Source: Patescibacteria group bacterium
GTDB taxonomy: Bacteria; Patescibacteriota; Patescibacteriia; Magasanikbacterales; GWA2-37-8
DNA: 62,457 bases
Direction: 5' to 3'
Assembly (NCBI GenBank): GCA_041651015.1
Contig: JBAZKA010000006.1
Span: 1-62,457, forward strand
The notes below the pieces were generated by a model. That model was not told where the DNA came from. It saw only the letters and a list, made by a program, of their open reading frames with translations, and made no database searches. The position numbers and the translations under genes were made by a program. This document shows, piece after piece, positions 23,968 to 29,946 of the stretch (within the stretch, counting starts at the first letter, position 1; each line of letters begins with the position of its first letter).

Positions 23968-24528
23968 ATGGCTTCAACAAGTGAAATCAGAAAAGGCGTG
24001 GTTATCCGCCATCAAAATGATTTATACGTGGTGGTGGAATTTCAGCATGTCAATCCGGGCAAGGGCGCGGCATTTGTGCGTACCCGCATGAAATCTTTGG
24101 CCACGGGCAAAGTGATTGAAATTACCTACAAAACCGTGGAATCCGTGGATATCGTGTCCGTGGATTTTATGACCATGCAGTTTCTCTACAAAACCGGCGA
24201 CAATTTCGCCTTCATGAATATGCAGTCGTATGAGCAGATTGAAATGAATGGCGACTTGATCGGCGATGAAGCCAAATACCTAAAAGAGGGTTTGGAAGTG
24301 ATTGTCGGTATTTATGAAAATCGTCCGGTTAGCATCCAATTGCCGAAAAAAGTTCAATACAAAGTGGTGGAGGCTCCACCGGCTGTGAAGGGCGATAGCG
24401 CCTCGGGCAATGTGACCAAAGAAATTGTTTTGGAAAACGGTCTGCACATCGCCGCCCCGATATTTATCAAAGAAGGCGAAGAAATTTTGGTCAATACCGA
24501 AACCGGTGACTACTCGGCCAGAGCGTAA
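23968..24528 (+). CDS. efp: elongation factor P
   Basis: MASTSEIRKGVVI...FQHVNPGKGAAFVRTRMKSLATGKV. Start set at MAST. Confidence 0.95.
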   Translation: MASTSEIRKGVVIRHQNDLYVVVEFQHVNPGKGAAFVRTRMKSLATGKVIEITYKTVESVDIVSVDFMTMQFLYKTGDNFAFMNMQSYEQIEMNGDLIGDEAKYLKEGLEVIVGIYENRPVSIQLPKKVQYKVVEAPPAVKGDSASGNVTKEIVLENGLHIAAPIFIKEGEEILVNTETGDYSARA

Positions 24529-24542
24529 AAAAATAAATTAAA

Positions 24543-24569
24543 ACGCCACGCGAAAGCGGGGCGTTTTTT
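24543..24569 (+). terminator. rho-independent terminator
   Basis: ACGCCACGC-GAAA-GCGGGGCGT followed by T6. Confidence 0.7.
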
Positions 24570-24572
24570 GAT

Positions 24573-24647
24573 TGGAGCGGGTAAGGGGAGTCGAACCCCT
24601 GTCACGAGTTTGGAAAACTCGGATAATAGCCGTTATATGATACCCGC
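24573..24647 (-). tRNA. tRNA-Gly(UCC), CCA encoded
   Basis: Manual cloverleaf: acceptor GCGGGUA/UACCCGC, anticodon arm CGAGU-UUUCCAA-ACUCG, T arm AGGGG-UUCGACU-CCCCU, discriminator U. Confidence 0.85.
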
Positions 24648-24742
24648 GAAATGAGCGGAATGGAAAAACGAAGTTTTTACATTTCCGAGCGAGGAACCTA
24701 ATATACCTAAGTATATTATGCCCGCTTGTTTTAACCCTAAGG
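24648..24742 (-). promoter_or_regulatory. structured 5' leader of tRNA-Gly(UCC), homologous to the leader at 28454-28544
   Basis: Two hairpins (TAATATAC-TTAG-GTATATTA and GGAAATGTAAAAAC-TTC-GTTTTTCCATTCC), then CCGCTCATTTC immediately before the tRNA. Confidence 0.4.
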
Positions 24743-24749
24743 TGAAAAT

Positions 24750-24778
24750 ATATTACAAAAAATTAGCCGTTTAGTCAA
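24750..24778 (-). promoter_or_regulatory. sigma-70-type promoter (TTGACT-17-TAATAT) for tRNA-Gly(UCC)
   Basis: Minus strand: TTGACTAAACGGCTAATTTTTTGTAATAT. Confidence 0.5.
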
Positions 24779-24819
24779 CCCCGGTTTTATGTTTTGCACA
24801 AATTTGCTATACTATCCCC

Positions 24820-25113
24820 ATGACTATCGCCGTATTTTATCAACAATTTTATTGGTTGATTTGGTACTTGCTCGCCATAAACGTGGCGACAATGTTTGTT
24901 TACGGCCTGGACAAAGCCAAGGCCAACAATTATAAAGCCCGGAGGATCAGCGAGCGTACCTTGCTTATCCTCGCGCTCATCGGCGGGTCAATTGGCGCGC
25001 TTATCGGTATGAAGTTGTTCAGGCACAAGACGCAAAAATTGTCTTTTCAGGCTCCACTGGCCGTAATTATTGGCCTGCAAATACTTTTAATCTGGTTGGT
25101 GTTTTTTAGGTGA
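24820..25113 (+). CDS. DUF1294-family membrane protein
   Basis: YGLDKAKANNYKARRISERTLLILALIGGSIGALIGMKLFRHKTQKLSF. Confidence 0.8.
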   Translation: MTIAVFYQQFYWLIWYLLAINVATMFVYGLDKAKANNYKARRISERTLLILALIGGSIGALIGMKLFRHKTQKLSFQAPLAVIIGLQILLIWLVFFR

Positions 25114-25124
25114 TAGGGGTCTGA

Positions 25125-25248
25125 CCCCACACCCAGAGGCCACTTTTCCCGGACTAATGCGTTTAAATTTACCTCAAAGAATAAGTTTGGTTATCGCTGA
25201 GCATAAACCTTTGAGTGGCGCAAAGCGCCGTGGCTTCTGGGTGTGGGG
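25125..25248. repeat. 124-bp element closed by 19-nt inverted repeats
   Basis: CCCCACACCCAGAGGCCAC (25125-25143) against GTGGCTTCTGGGTGTGGGG (25230-25248), one mismatch. Internal CTCAAAG/CTTTGAG and GGCGCAAAGCGCC hairpins. Confidence 0.45.
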
Positions 25249-25249
25249 C

Positions 25250-25278
25250 TTGACAAAAAATTGACGGCGTAGTATTAT
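25250..25278 (+). promoter_or_regulatory. sigma-70-type promoter (TTGACA-17-TATTAT)
   Basis: TTGACAAAAAATTGACGGCGTAGTATTAT. Confidence 0.6.
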
Positions 25279-25316
25279 GTTTACCGATTTAACTAATTTA
25301 AGCTCCCACAAAGCTT

Positions 25317-25538
25317 ATGACAGCAAACAAACAAAACATCGATTTAAATGACGATGATAATCTCTTGGAAGACGAGGAAGATGAAGAACTCGGTTTTCAC
25401 GAGGTTGACGAAAACGAAGACGAAGAGTCGGAAGACGAAGAAGATGAGTATGAAGATGAGGAAGACGAAGAATCCGATGACGAATTGGACGAAGAAGATG
25501 AAGACGATGACGACGACTCGGCCAAGGACGACATGTAG
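25317..25538 (+). CDS. 73-aa poly-acidic (Asp/Glu-rich) protein
   Basis: Has its own promoter and a downstream hairpin with a T-run (about 25547-25578). Sequence is ...EDEEDEELGFHEVDENEDEESEDEEDEYEDEEDEESDDELDEEDEDDDDD.... Confidence 0.55.
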   Translation: MTANKQNIDLNDDDNLLEDEEDEELGFHEVDENEDEESEDEEDEYEDEEDEESDDELDEEDEDDDDDSAKDDM

Positions 25539-25611
25539 AATATAAAATCATCCCGTTAGACGCGGGGTGATTTTTTGTTGAGTTTCGGTTGGCAGTGTAT
25601 AATATGTAAAT

Positions 25612-25851
25612 ATGTATTATTTATATATTTTGGAATGCCAAGATAAAACATTGTACACCGGCATCACGGTGGATTTGGCGCGCCGTTTGCGCGAACACAA
25701 TTCGTCCAAACTTGGGGCGAAATATACGCGAGCGCGCCGGCCGGTCAAATTAGTTTATTCCAAAAAATTCCGTAACCGCTCGCTCGCGTCAAAAGCTGAG
25801 AGCGAGGTGAAGAAATTATCGCGAGCGGAAAAATTAAAATTGATTTTGTGA
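25612..25851 (+). CDS. GIY-YIG nuclease-domain protein (UPF0213-like)
   Basis: YYLYILECQDKTLYTGITVDLARRLREHN. Confidence 0.85.
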   Translation: MYYLYILECQDKTLYTGITVDLARRLREHNSSKLGAKYTRARRPVKLVYSKKFRNRSLASKAESEVKKLSRAEKLKLIL

Positions 25852-25864
25852 TATAATATACCCG

Positions 25865-28414
25865 ATGCTAAATATTAGCGCAGGGGATATGAACGTGCTT
25901 AACTTCAGCGGACGGAGCAGTAAAAATTTAATGACCGAGTTGGAAACATCGGAGAACGGCTTGTCCATGTCCGAAGTTTTGTCGCGCCAAAAAAAATACG
26001 GGCTGAATGAAATAGGCGGGCGTGAAACTCACTGGTGGGACATTCTCGGCCGACAATTTAAGTCGCCGTTTATATATTTATTGATCGGGGCGGCCGCGCT
26101 TTCCATCGCCATGCGCGAGACGATTGACGGGATTATGGTGATTTGTTTTATTGTCATCAACAGCGGCTTGGGTTTCATACAAGAATTTCATTCCGAGAAA
26201 TCGGTTAAACTCCTAAAAAAATTTGTGATTGCCCGAACACGCGTGCGGCGCGATGGGCACGAATATTTGGCGGGGAGCAAAGACTTAACTTTAGGTGATG
26301 TAATAATCGTGGGTACGGGCGATGTCTTGCCGGCTGATGTTAGATTTTTTGAAGCCAATGATTTGATGGTGGATGAATCCATATTGACCGGCGAGTCGGC
26401 GCCCGCGGAAAAGAGCGCCGGTGATTTGGCGCAAGCGGCCGCGGATATTTATGCCGCGAAAAATATGGGATTCTCCGGCACCTGCATCGCGAGCGGTCGG
26501 GGTATGGGCGTGGTAGTGGCTATTGGTCAAGATACAATCATTGGGGATGCCGCCAAAATGACCACCGAGACGCAACGTGTCAGTCCGTTTGAAAAAGGCA
26601 TCAACAATTTTAGCAAGATCATTTTGCGCATGGTCGTTGTGATCATTATGTTTATTTTTGCGGCCAATGTTTTGATTAAAGGCCATGGAACAGATATCGC
26701 GGAATTGGTTTTATTTTCTATTGCTCTCGCAGTAAGTGTGATTCCCGAAGCTTTGCCGGTCGTCACCACGTTGTCACTTTCGCGCGGCGCTTTGCGTTTG
26801 GCTCGGGAACAGGTGGTGGTCAAGCGTTTATCCGCGGTGGAAGATTTAGGTAGTATTGAAGTTTTATGCACGGATAAAACCGGTACGATCACGGAAAATA
26901 AATTACAAGTGGCCGGCACCTACGGCCAGGCAGATCGGGCGATATATTTAGCCGCGCTGGCCTCATCGTTTCTGGGCGAAAAAAAACGCGAACCGAACAA
27001 TGCTTTTGATCTGGCCCTTTGGAATAAAATTTCTGCGGATAAAAAACAAGAAATCACGATCATTAAACGCGTAAGCGAGTTACCTTTTGACCCGGACCGT
27101 CGGCGCAATAGCGTGCTCGTGGAAAAAGGCCAAGAACGGCAGATGATTGTCCGTGGCGCGTTTGAATCTATCGCTCCTTTGTGTGCTGATCTGGATGAAA
27201 TTAAACACGCGGAATTGGGCAAATGGATTAAGGCCGAAGGCATGCAAGGCCGCCGGACAATTATTCTCGCCGAGCGAGCTTGTCCGTCAATGATAAATTA
27301 CAAAGAAAAGGACGAACAAATGCTCTCGTTTGTTGGCGCGATTTCCTTTGAAGATCCGATTAAGGCCACGACAAAAAGCGCGATTCAACAAGCGGCTATG
27401 CTTGGCGTGATGGTCAAAATTATTACCGGCGACAGTCCGGAGGTAGCCGGCGCCGTAGCCGCGCGCATTGGTTTGATTCAAAGCGCTGAAGCGGTGTTGA
27501 CCGGCGAGAGGTTGGAAAAGATGAATGACGAAGAACAGTTGGAAGCCGTGGAAAAATATTCTGTGTTTGCCCGTGTGTCTCCACGGCAAAAATTTTTAAT
27601 TATACAAACCCTGCAAAGAAAATTTGAAGTGGGATTTTTGGGCGAGGGAATTAATGACGCACCGGCTTTGAAATTAGCCAACGTGGCCTTGGCCGTGGAC
27701 GGCGCCTCGGACATTGCTCGCGAAGCCTCGGACATTATTTTGCTTAACCCCAGTTTAGCTGTAATCATTGACGGCATCAGGAGCGGGCGGGAAATTTTTG
27801 CCAACACGGTAAAATATTTGAAAATAACTTTGATATCCAATTTCGGAAATTTTTACGCCATTGCCGTGGCGTCGCTCATCATTTCATTTTTGCCCATGTT
27901 GCCGGCGCAACTTTTACTTTTGAATTTATTGTCGGATTTTCCCATGATTGCCATTGCTATGGACACGGTGGACAAAAATGAATTAAAACGTCCGCGTTCG
28001 TACAATGTGCGTGAAGTTGTGTTGATGGCTGTGTTGCTCGGCCTTGTCAGCACAGTGTTTGATTTTATATTTTTTGGTTTATATTTTCGTAAAGACCCGT
28101 CAGTCTTGCAGACAAACTGGTTCATCGGTTCGGTGCTGACTGAATTGGTTTTAATTTATTCAATCAGGACGCGCGGTTTATTTATCAAGGCGCGGCGCCC
28201 GTCCACGATTTTATCCGCCTTGTCCATTGTGGCAATCGGAGCAACTCTGTTATTGCCTTTTACTCCGCTTGGCATTGGTTTGTTTAAATTTACACCACCG
28301 ACTGCGTATTTCCTCATTACAATTTTTAGTGTGGTGATTTGCTATTTTATTATCACGGAAATTTTAAAAAGAGTTTACTATCGTTTCGCGGGCAATGGGG
28401 ACGGGGGGAAATAG
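25865..28414 (+). CDS. cation-transporting P-type ATPase (MgtA/Ca-ATPase-like)
   Basis: TGES, CTDKTGTITENK (DKTGT), GEGINDAPALK, and about 10 TM helices. The exact start is uncertain. Confidence 0.9.
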   Translation: MLNISAGDMNVLNFSGRSSKNLMTELETSENGLSMSEVLSRQKKYGLNEIGGRETHWWDILGRQFKSPFIYLLIGAAALSIAMRETIDGIMVICFIVINSGLGFIQEFHSEKSVKLLKKFVIARTRVRRDGHEYLAGSKDLTLGDVIIVGTGDVLPADVRFFEANDLMVDESILTGESAPAEKSAGDLAQAAADIYAAKNMGFSGTCIASGRGMGVVVAIGQDTIIGDAAKMTTETQRVSPFEKGINNFSKIILRMVVVIIMFIFAANVLIKGHGTDIAELVLFSIALAVSVIPEALPVVTTLSLSRGALRLAREQVVVKRLSAVEDLGSIEVLCTDKTGTITENKLQVAGTYGQADRAIYLAALASSFLGEKKREPNNAFDLALWNKISADKKQEITIIKRVSELPFDPDRRRNSVLVEKGQERQMIVRGAFESIAPLCADLDEIKHAELGKWIKAEGMQGRRTIILAERACPSMINYKEKDEQMLSFVGAISFEDPIKATTKSAIQQAAMLGVMVKIITGDSPEVAGAVAARIGLIQSAEAVLTGERLEKMNDEEQLEAVEKYSVFARVSPRQKFLIIQTLQRKFEVGFLGEGINDAPALKLANVALAVDGASDIAREASDIILLNPSLAVIIDGIRSGREIFANTVKYLKITLISNFGNFYAIAVASLIISFLPMLPAQLLLLNLLSDFPMIAIAMDTVDKNELKRPRSYNVREVVLMAVLLGLVSTVFDFIFFGLYFRKDPSVLQTNWFIGSVLTELVLIYSIRTRGLFIKARRPSTILSALSIVAIGATLLLPFTPLGIGLFKFTPPTAYFLITIFSVVICYFIITEILKRVYYRFAGNGDGGK

Positions 28415-28418
28415 GATA

Positions 28419-28447
28419 TTGACAAAATTTCGTTTTTCTTATATAAT
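28419..28447 (+). promoter_or_regulatory. sigma-70-type promoter (TTGACA-17-TATAAT) for the tRNA-Gly/tRNA-fMet operon
   Basis: TTGACAAAATTTCGTTTTTCTTATATAAT. Confidence 0.6.
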
Positions 28448-28453
28448 CTAACC

Positions 28454-28544
28454 CAGAGTAAATAGATTTCGCGGGTATACTAAGGTATACCCGCTCATTC
28501 GCGGAAAATGTCAAAATAAATTTTGCCATTTTGCCGCTCATTTC
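28454..28544 (+). promoter_or_regulatory. structured 5' leader of tRNA-Gly(GCC), including an acceptor-stem-like minihelix
   Basis: GCGGGTATAC-TAAG-GTATACCCGCTCA (tRNA 5' and 3' acceptor strands joined). Also AAAATGTCAAAA-TAAA-TTTTGCCATTTT. CCGCTCATTTC lies directly before the tRNA. Confidence 0.4.
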
Positions 28545-28616
28545 GCGGGTATAGTACAACGGTTAGTATACGTCCTTGCCAAGGATGAGATGGCGGTTCG
28601 ATTCCGCTTACCCGCT
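28545..28616 (+). tRNA. tRNA-Gly(GCC), no encoded CCA
   Basis: Manual cloverleaf: acceptor GCGGGUA/UACCCGC, anticodon arm CGUCC-UUGCCAA-GGAUG, T arm GGCGG-UUCGAUU-CCGCU. Confidence 0.85.
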
Positions 28617-28660
28617 CAAGACGACCCATAATTAAGATATGGGTCGCGCTATACATATAT

Positions 28661-28733
28661 AGCGGGGTAGAGCAATTGGCAGCTCGTCGGGCCCATAACC
28701 CGAAGGTTCCCGGTTCAAGTCCGGGCCCCGCAA
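28661..28733 (+). tRNA. initiator tRNA-fMet(CAU), no encoded CCA
   Basis: Nearly identical to the E. coli tRNA-fMet core (GCUCGUCGGGC-C-CAUAACCCGAAGG). Has the three G-C pairs in the anticodon stem and an unpaired 1:72 (A:A). Confidence 0.8.
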
Positions 28734-28734
28734 C

Positions 28735-28770
28735 AAAAGAGTTCAATTATAATAATTGAACTTTTGTTTT
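28735..28770 (+). terminator. rho-independent terminator
   Basis: AAAAGAGTTCAATT-loop-AATTGAACTTTT followed by a T-run. Confidence 0.65.
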
Positions 28771-28818
28771 ATTGGGGATATACTAAGTGGATATAATAAT
28801 TTTTTAAAGTAATGTAGT

Positions 28819-29946
28819 ATGTCAACTAAAGAATTCTTTAATGATCAAAGTGACGGCACTGCCGTAAAGATAAACTTTTATGAAGATTACATAGAGAGTT
28901 ATCTATTCAAGATATTATTATCTTTTGGTAGTTGTATGATCGCAGACTTATTCTGTGGACCGGGCAAAAATGGCGATAAAGATGGAAGCCCGTTAATTTT
29001 GCTTAAAAAAGCAACGGAAGTTTTAAAAGACGAGAAATTTAGTAACAGTGTAAAATCATCCTCGGAAATTATCGTTATTTTTAATGACATTAATAAAGAA
29101 AATATTAATAAGTTAAAAAGTGAGTTATCAGCCATAAGTCTTCCGGGAAATATAAAAATAATTGAACCGCAGAATAATAAATTTAGTGATATCGCCGCAG
29201 AAATTGTTAAGCTTAATATTTCAATGCCCAAATTTTTTTTCTTAGACCCGTTTACATATGGCGACATTCAGCTGTCTGAGATCAAGCAATTAATGGATAT
29301 AAATTGTTCCGAAGTGATGTTATTTATGCCTACATTCTTGGCTTATCGTTTTGCGACGTCAATTAAGAACCCGCAAAAATTGATAAGTTTTTTAAATAAT
29401 TTTACCGACAAAGGAGTTTATGATTATGAAGATATATATGATTTTGTTAATTCAATTAAACGAAAAATTAAGATGGAGCTTGGTTTAAAATTTGTGCAGG
29501 ATGCTCTAATTGATGTCGGCAAAAATAAAAATTCACTTTTTTTATTAACAAAAAACACGAAAGGCGCCATGCTTTTTAATAATCTTTTTTGGAAGGAGTC
29601 TTATGACGGTAAATCATTAAATGTTTCTGAAATTAAACACAATGAAAAAGAACCGAGATTATTTTCTAAAGATGTTCTGCCAACGGCCGAACTTGAAGAA
29701 CGCGTTCTTAACTTTCAGACAAAGGTCATTGATGAATTAAAGAAGAAGCGCAAGATGTGTAATACGGAAGTAATAGAATTTACAGTCGTCGAGGGTTTTA
29801 AGCCGAAACACGCGAACGACGTTCTTATAAAATTAAAAAAAGAAAATAAAATTAGAGTAAATTATTTTAGTGCCTTAAAAGTTAAGGGTTTTTATGTATC
29901 TGAAAAGATGTTCGATCAGAAATTGTGTGAAATAGTATTTTTATAG
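28819..29946 (+). CDS. TcmP-like (three-Cys-motif partner) protein
   Basis: N-terminus ...KINFYEDYIESYLFKIL...IADLFCGPGKNGDKDGSPLILL resembles the TcmP family as I recall it. Paired with the atypical radical-SAM-like gene. Visibly AT-rich. Confidence 0.5.
   Translation: MSTKEFFNDQSDGTAVKINFYEDYIESYLFKILLSFGSCMIADLFCGPGKNGDKDGSPLILLKKATEVLKDEKFSNSVKSSSEIIVIFNDINKENINKLKSELSAISLPGNIKIIEPQNNKFSDIAAEIVKLNISMPKFFFLDPFTYGDIQLSEIKQLMDINCSEVMLFMPTFLAYRFATSIKNPQKLISFLNNFTDKGVYDYEDIYDFVNSIKRKIKMELGLKFVQDALIDVGKNKNSLFLLTKNTKGAMLFNNLFWKESYDGKSLNVSEIKHNEKEPRLFSKDVLPTAELEERVLNFQTKVIDELKKKRKMCNTEVIEFTVVEGFKPKHANDVLIKLKKENKIRVNYFSALKVKGFYVSEKMFDQKLCEIVFL

Follow-up and report, generated by a model that had tools for sequence, protein, structure and literature searches.

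The leaders of the two tRNA-Gly genes in the window (the whole stretch of 62,457 nt of Patescibacteria DNA that we analyzed) belong to a real, conserved, and structure-constrained family of two-hairpin units. The first hairpin of a unit is made from the gene that follows: the first 6 to 14 nt of that gene are copied in its 5' strand, and its 3' strand is the complement. On our best reading, the family consists of cassettes of 74 to 80 nt that belong to Magasanikbacteria-like Patescibacteria and form a spreading module rather than a glycine sensor. Our preferred, if tentative, explanation of the two leaders is that they are copies of a gene-front cassette that spreads by duplication, is co-transcribed with the gene, and is cut off together with the leader by RNase P.

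Table 1. Parts of the two tRNA-Gly loci, in positions of the window
Feature	Position	Strand	Remarks
tRNA-Gly(GCC)	28545-28617	+	ARAGORN and Rfam; CCA not encoded
tRNA-Gly(UCC)	24573-24647	-	ARAGORN and Rfam; CCA encoded
Sigma-70-like promoter of the tRNA-Gly(GCC)-tRNA-Met transcript	28419..28447	+	TTGACA-17-TATAAT, 12/12 consensus
Promoter-like site of the tRNA-Gly(UCC) transcript	24750..24778	-	TTGACT-17-TAATAT, 9/12
Whole GCC-locus unit	28471-28544	+	
Whole UCC-locus unit	24725-24648	-	
GCC-locus hairpin 1	28471..28494	+	10 bp, 4-nt loop
GCC-locus linker UCAUUC, single-stranded, conserved	28495..28500	+	Unpaired in MFE fold
GCC-locus hairpin 2	28501..28537	+	~16 bp, U.C mismatch 28511/28526, bulged G 28533
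GCC-locus single-stranded conserved tail, adjoins tRNA +1	28538..28544	+	Unpaired in fold
UCC-locus hairpin 1	24689..24725	-	Outer 5-bp helix, internal loop, inner 8-bp helix, 4-nt loop
UCC-locus hairpin 2	24656..24687	-	U.C mismatch, one bulged A
UCC-locus single-stranded tail, adjoins tRNA +1	24648..24655	-	

At the two tRNA-Gly genes, the unit is 74 to 78 nt long; a short linker joins hairpin 1 to the long hairpin 2, which is followed by a single-stranded tail (Table 1). The initial annotation had drawn attention to the likeness of the two leaders, and most of that comparison held up: each leader opens with the 5' pentamer of its own tRNA, both contain a first hairpin with a 4-nt loop and a long second hairpin with a U.C mismatch at an equal relative position, and an identical 11-nt string closes both leaders and is joined to tRNA +1. 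The proposed pairing of the terminal CCGC with the 5' end of the tRNA was not borne out; in the predicted fold, CCGC instead closes hairpin 2. Folding with RNAfold revealed three separate modules at both loci (hairpin 1, hairpin 2, and the cloverleaf), with z-scores of -5.2 and -3.75 for the two leaders and none of 200 shuffled sequences as stable. The 5' strand of hairpin 1 at the GCC locus repeats nucleotides 1 to 9 of the tRNA and has one further base, and the 3' strand is complementary to it. This unit begins 23 nt past the -10 box and therefore lies within the transcribed leader. Upstream of orthologous units in relatives, the promoter layout is as at the UCC locus. No terminator-like site was found within the unit.

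An internal promoter in the unit was rejected because the hexamers are 21 nt apart or the start would fall inside the tRNA. Two mini-ORFs were also discarded: hairpin 1 of the protein-gene subtype encodes Met-Gly-stop, and hairpin 2 in the window encodes Met-Ser-Lys-stop, but neither is conserved across subtypes. Downstream of the GCC locus, the 43-nt spacer between tRNA-Gly(GCC) and tRNA-Met (28618-28660, + strand) contains an 8-bp hairpin at ~28623-28648; tRNA-Met itself (28661-28734) has position 1:72 unpaired and its CCA is not encoded.

Is the two-hairpin structure maintained in relatives? The initial annotation had made its proposal of a functional element depend on conservation there. 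A covariance model (R1) built from 18 curated units scored the two leaders at 97 and 58 bits (58.5 at UCC), with E values of 3e-18 and 1e-9, and gave no further sense-strand match at E <= 0.01 in the 1.03-Mb genome. Units were indeed found in relatives: R1 matched 65 of the 151 genomes from this order (49/59 in family f1, 6/7 in f8, and 6/58 in f5) and also had matches in a few families elsewhere in the class. Across the 18 units, 89% of the cells at paired positions were paired, against 36 to 54% when partners were slid, and compensatory changes were present in 20 of 26 base pairs; none of 500 shuffles scored as high as the observed alignment. Compensatory changes affected 15 of the 16 pairs of hairpin 2, and the pairs of hairpin 1 at the GCC locus are either kept or compensated in relatives. 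These data uphold the claim that the element is constrained in structure beyond simple promoter conservation.

The unpaired parts of the unit are conserved as well. The tail T-C-A-Y-T-K-C is nearly invariant across 45 distinct units, 25 of which have a pyrimidine-pyrimidine mismatch at the hairpin 2 site. The linker, conserved columns 44 to 49 of alignment A3, begins with UCA in all subtypes. These nearly invariant single-stranded motifs sit exactly on the borders of the modules. Both hairpins are followed by the conserved UCA and a spacer, and the next helix starts with G. Non-Watson-Crick cells comprised 55 G.U and 71 A.C, with no RNA-type excess of wobble pairs, a comparison that is unable to tell RNA from DNA-level constraint because the mismatches cluster at a few inherited positions. 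The unit of this genome is 72/74 identical to that of G005, while the DNA of the neighboring ATPase gene is 71% identical; the named relatives of a neighboring gene are from Candidatus Magasanikbacteria and other Patescibacteria. A recent segmental duplication had been raised as another source of the similarity between the leaders. When leader and tRNA are taken together, the likeness of the two loci is only 72%, with poor alignment upstream of the unit and flanks that do not align, and we therefore conclude that no recent segmental duplication took place.

No Rfam 15 family was detected on 28454-28544 or 24648-24745, and cmscan of 24000-29500 at E <= 10 returned only the three tRNAs and chance-level matches. 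We found no description of the family in the full-text literature searches or the databases searched.

The dependence of hairpin 1 on the gene that follows was seen by comparing genomes. Five different tRNA-Gly 5' octamers occur among them, and each is mirrored by its own unit in ~23 of 28 cases. At tRNA-Gly genes the identical prefix measures 8 to 9 or 14 nt, and the copy always stops after ...TAT(A). The copy spans the first 7 to 9 nt of non-Gly tRNAs, and at protein genes it consists of the 4 nt before the ATG and the first two bases of the codon. At the UCC locus, the 5' strand of hairpin 1 matches tRNA-Gly(UCC) of the sister genomes G001 and G003 at 14 of 14 positions and its own tRNA at 12 of 14. 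Which copy the complement strand follows varies: it is the upstream one at tRNA-linked units and the downstream one in several protein-gene units, and no rule emerged. The cargo that the cassettes share comprises the linker, the long hairpin 2, and a tail rich in pyrimidines. The initial annotation had described hairpin 1 of the GCC locus as a mimic of the acceptor stem and discriminator. The pairs and the U after them are present as described, but they arise from a general rule: the acceptor-plus-discriminator look at tRNA-Gly results from general copying of 5' ends combined with a family-wide linker that starts with UCA.

We then asked where units are found. Among the 24 best loci, which come from different genomes, 19 lie directly 5' of a tRNA-Gly gene (GCC, UCC, or CCC). 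Units also stand 5' of tRNA-Ala(CGC), Pro(GGG), Pro(CGG), and Lys(UUU), and in each case the tRNA concerned supplies the sequence of hairpin 1; tRNA-Arg(UCU) has a copy of its 5' end upstream but no clear complementary strand. Protein genes are preceded by units in many genera of the family, with dozens of copies in some genomes (38 model matches in G042 and 26 in G125; at least 34 copies by BLAST in G042, 75 to 92% alike). In 31 of the 37 non-tRNA copies read, the distance from the unit to the start of the ATG is exactly 5 nt. The cassette is flush with the 5' end of the gene's RNA product, at tRNA +1 or 4 nt before the ATG, and the tRNA-abutting and ATG-abutting copies share one covariance model and one anatomy. 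Units are always oriented in the sense of their gene and occur between genes inside operons, including tRNA operons.

The number and presence of units vary between genomes. Arrays of one to four units in tandem, often two to four, occur at tRNA-Gly, and the second hairpins of tandem units differ completely yet stay paired. One intergenic site was compared across 16 genomes of the same genus; an intact unit is present there in G042 alone, and G073 has a remnant. An rplX-like gene has a unit in front of it in the sister genome G001 and none in this genome. Hairpin-1-only and tail-only remnants were seen as products of decay. In G004 (L003:1275-1647), tRNA-Gly(UCC) has four units in tandem in front of it. 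The third unit is of the UCC type and the others are of the GCC-locus type, and units have therefore been exchanged between different tRNA-Gly loci. A minimal unit precedes tRNA-Gly(CCC) in G008 (L034:311-340), where hairpin 1 and four linker bases are present and hairpin 2 and the tail are absent.

Several known classes were compared with the unit and rejected. A tRNA gene or pseudogene gave no match in the leaders with ARAGORN or the Rfam tRNA model, and the conserved fold is two hairpins. A T-box leader was dismissed since there is no Rfam T-box match and the unit precedes tRNAs and unrelated protein genes with no terminator-like site; the leaders had no glycine-riboswitch match in Rfam either. 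CRISPR arrays do not fit, the variable part being itself a hairpin and the "repeats" differing; the sole match to a CRISPR direct repeat was at chance level and lay elsewhere. Dispersed similar copies with presence/absence polymorphism, as expected of a MITE, were found in relatives, and this genome holds two copies. A MITE with fixed terminal inverted repeats or target-site duplication was rejected; the sole inverted pair is the target-derived hairpin 1, or the complement with the downstream copy. The direct duplication measures 6, 8 to 9, or 14 nt and always runs from the first base of the gene, as opposed to a target-site duplication of fixed length.

How, then, would such units spread and be tolerated? 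In the explanation we prefer, a duplicative DNA element would spread by insertion or by short-homology recombination. At the two tRNA-Gly genes, the cassette would be transcribed from the tRNA promoter within the precursor and would fold as two self-contained hairpins, leaving its last 7 to 8 nt single-stranded and the cloverleaf undisturbed. RNase P would cleave at +1, and the cassette would be discarded. It would be a tolerated, self-insulating leader that senses neither glycine nor tRNA charging. The dispersal of the units, their presence/absence polymorphism, the variable arrays, and the remnants count for the DNA-element side of this explanation, as do the sharp junctions of identity, the contrast in identity to G005 between the unit and the ATPase gene, and the lack of a G.U excess.

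Several points count against the cassette explanation. The first is that no mobilizing enzyme was identified among the candidates checked, the Y1 transposase and the small GIY-YIG genes. The Y1 transposase (PF01797) was not found in G000, G005, G042, G125, and G077, in a search with positive controls, and the small GIY-YIG genes were rejected, as they are bounded by a different hairpin-repeat family. The second is that the direct and inverted copies of the target 5' end, with the direct copy always from +1, fit no insertion mechanism known to us.

The unit was also compared with described elements. The Correia/NEMIS repeats of Neisseria, RUP, ERIC, and REP/BIME are short, gene-less, multi-copy intergenic repeats that are co-transcribed and form RNA hairpins. 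Correia/NEMIS-like repeats are often near gene starts and polymorphic between strains; their terminal inverted repeats are fixed, they have a TA duplication of 2 bp, and they are found in both orientations and do not copy the 5' end of the target. The unit is likewise short, multi-copy, hairpin-forming, near gene starts, and polymorphic, but it differs in its strict orientation, in directly abutting the RNA 5' end or start codon, and in having one target-derived hairpin. Palindrome-associated elements derived from IS200/IS605 are strand-specific, have sub-terminal hairpins, and insert beside a short specific word. Integrative elements duplicate the end of the target gene, which stays intact, and their integrases normally regenerate the 3' end of a tRNA over kilobases. 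Like these two classes, the unit is strand-specific with hairpins and duplicates the end of its target. It differs from the IS200/IS605 type in that no Y1 transposase was found in the five genomes and from integrative elements in that it duplicates the 5' end across 75 nt and adds an inverted target copy. The rtT repeats of E. coli tyrT (Rfam RF00391) are tandem, contain a tRNA fragment, and are co-transcribed; they lie 3' of the tRNA, measure 178 bp, contain the 3' end of the tRNA, and are not a dispersed family. The unit is also found in tandem beside a tRNA gene and has a tRNA fragment, whereas it lies 5' of the tRNA, has no Rfam match, and belongs to a dispersed family. Described MITEs, REPs, and integrative elements are not known to rebuild a hairpin from the 5' end of each target. 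The target-derived hairpin points to either an unknown insertion or repair mechanism, leaving direct and inverted copies, or a natural programmable guide for RNA-end processing.

Some of our observations concern the transcript. The retention of the unit at tRNA-Gly in most genomes of the family, the intact hairpins in a genome with only two copies, and the nearly invariant border motifs argue for selection on the transcript and also count against the cassette explanation. The strict sense orientation within transcription units counts for a role of the transcript. Among public RNA runs, only two contained 5 to 7% of the sampled words; both consisted of contigs, with the flanks uncovered and ends not shown. 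A 318-nt contig from a sediment metatranscriptome spans the unit and tRNA of a relative, a hint of transcription that counts for the cassette explanation but is weak because such libraries can contain DNA. The copy on this contig is near-identical and has two fully compensatory double changes as well as a swap of U.C to C.U, which also counts for a role of the transcript and against the cassette explanation.

Could the host make use of the units? The main alternative, which is possible though somewhat less likely than the cassette explanation, is that they are markers of RNA ends used by the host, with hairpins that mimic a minihelix of tRNA acceptor and T-arm. The marker would be a helix closed by G...C, followed by UCA and a short U/C spacer, and would be recognized by RNase P on the 5' side and by RNase Z or exonucleases on the 3' side. 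It would set the 5' end of tRNA-Gly and, in relatives, free near-leaderless mRNAs (with a leader of 4 to 10 nt) from operon transcripts. Its favorable evidence includes the length of hairpin 1 (10 to 14 bp, near a 12-bp minihelix), the conserved UCA and spacer after both hairpins with G opening the next helix, the end of the unit always exactly at tRNA +1 or 4 nt before the ATG, and the units between genes in operons and in tRNA operons. However, the cleavage is a predicted one, helices show no excess of G.U over A.C, the outer pairs of hairpin 1 are mismatched in many copies, and orthologous sites can do without a copy. In addition, RNase P alone would not cut at the 5' end of the mRNA, since no minihelix-like structure is present there.

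Minihelix substrates and external guide sequences of RNase P were reportedly described by McClain, Guerrier-Takada, and Altman in 1987 and by Forster and Altman in 1990. The unit resembles the model substrates in its helix of ~12 bp that starts with G and in its unpaired, N-C-A-like 3' end, and its complement strand plus UCA resembles a built-in guide for the downstream 5' end. It differs from them in that its 3' extension is UCA and not RCCA and in that the guide-like strand is in cis, upstream, and already paired. Compared with the RNase P minihelix, hairpin 1 has 10 bp (GCC) or 13 bp plus an internal loop (UCC), followed by U-C-A or U and not by RCCA. A full-length RNase P RNA of type A is present, although sub-threshold: at L218:1501-1946 (G000 contig C5:7928-8373), the bacterial type-A model matches end to end at 49 bits (threshold, 100). 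It spans 446 nt against 367 model positions; this RNA is divergent and probably carries an insertion.

Control of RNase P cleavage and access by leader structure (PMC8925977) is consistent with the marker alternative as well as with the cassette explanation. The leaders in that study are designed RNase P riboswitches fused to tRNAs; they are synthetic, ligand-binding, and made of a single hairpin (PMC8925977). As in those leaders, folding decides whether the stretch before +1 is single-stranded and RNase P has access; the natural unit, by contrast, has its last 7 to 8 nt open in the predicted fold and no aptamer-like conserved pocket. A putative role of the unit in tRNA 5' processing, which the initial annotation had also suggested, is possible.

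A combination of spreading and marking is doubtful. Here, the units would be re-targetable, spreading markers of RNA ends, in which the target-made hairpin acts as a mimic of a minihelix or external guide and is cut by tRNA-processing enzymes. If true, such a marker would be a bacterial counterpart of mitochondrial tRNA punctuation, trimming pre-tRNAs and freeing near-leaderless mRNAs in CPR bacteria, in which Shine-Dalgarno sequences are little used. The tRNA punctuation of polycistronic mitochondrial transcripts is said to have been proposed by Ojala, Montoya, and Attardi in 1981. There, tRNAs abut coding regions, and tRNA-processing enzymes free leaderless or near-leaderless mRNAs. The units differ from this system in being hairpins and not tRNAs and in being optional at orthologous sites, and their processing is putative.

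The copy-complement-target layout of the unit could also be read as a platform of anti-sequestor, sequestor, and target. In this improbable alternative, the unit is a three-part RNA switch: the complement strand of hairpin 1 would pair either with the upstream copy, leaving the gene start free, or with the real downstream 5' end or start codon, which would be sequestered. The switch would tune tRNA maturation or the start of translation, with hairpin 2 as a sensing or timing module. In protein-gene units whose copies differ, the complement fits the downstream copy in five cases and the upstream copy in one (read by eye), in agreement with such a switch; at tRNA-linked units, however, it follows the upstream copy. 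The long-range helix at mRNAs would have just ~6 AU-rich pairs, the tRNA-Gly case would require hairpin 1 and the acceptor stem to be broken while the MFE fold shows independent modules, and the sequence of hairpin 2 is too variable for a ligand pocket.

The initial annotation had suggested a role linked to glycine or aminoacylation. Such a function, either a minihelix-Gly decoy or a sensor of GlyRS or aminoacyl-tRNA acting on the acceptor identity set (G1-C72, C2-G71, G3-C70, and U73), is very improbable, the non-Gly copies having largely refuted it. In its favor, the pairs of the identity set, followed by U, are indeed present in hairpin 1 of the GCC locus, and most units in the family are at tRNA-Gly genes. 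Nevertheless, tRNA-Ala, -Pro, -Lys, and -Arg and many protein genes carry units, with hairpin 1 re-made accordingly. In addition, 12 of 45 units have A opposite C2, the U that follows the helix is part of a linker conserved whatever the target, and no T-box or glycine-riboswitch match was found.

The idea that the leaders are unconstrained remains of decayed tandem tRNA-Gly pseudogenes or of a recent segmental duplication is hardly credible: the unit is about the length of a tRNA, starts like tRNA-Gly, and ends like its 3' end, but the tRNA model has no match in the leaders at E <= 10, compensatory change maintains the two-hairpin fold, the second hairpins of tandem units are wholly different yet paired, and the 72% likeness and unrelated flanks of the loci speak against a duplication.

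For gene organization, the finding would mean that streamlined CPR genomes of ~1 Mb put up with, or make use of, a structured cassette located exactly where essential RNAs begin and, on the protein-gene side, 4 nt before start codons. For annotation, units could be mis-called as tRNA fragments or promoters, and their presence or absence could be a lineage marker for comparative genomics.

Other repeats and small ORFs were observed near tRNA genes. A 79-aa ORF for a GIY-YIG mini-nuclease (25612-25851, + strand) lies between the two tRNA-Gly loci, and no link to the unit was found. This genome has seven GIY-YIG mini-ORFs, several of which adjoin tRNA genes. A GIY-YIG ORF of 86 aa is located just upstream of the repeats of tRNA-Lys(UUU) at L128:1766-1948 (G000 contig C3:15624-15806). 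In front of that tRNA, its first 8 nt occur twice more; after each copy comes a perfect hairpin of ~40 nt, either complete or as a single arm, which ends flush with tRNA +1. About a dozen other tRNAs of this genome (Asp, two Val, two Arg, Lys-CUU, Cys, Ser-GCU, and Thr) are likewise preceded by their own 5' end and GC-rich hairpins with GNRA or UNCG loops. The GC-rich hairpins of the tRNA-Lys type form a family distinct from the Gly unit.
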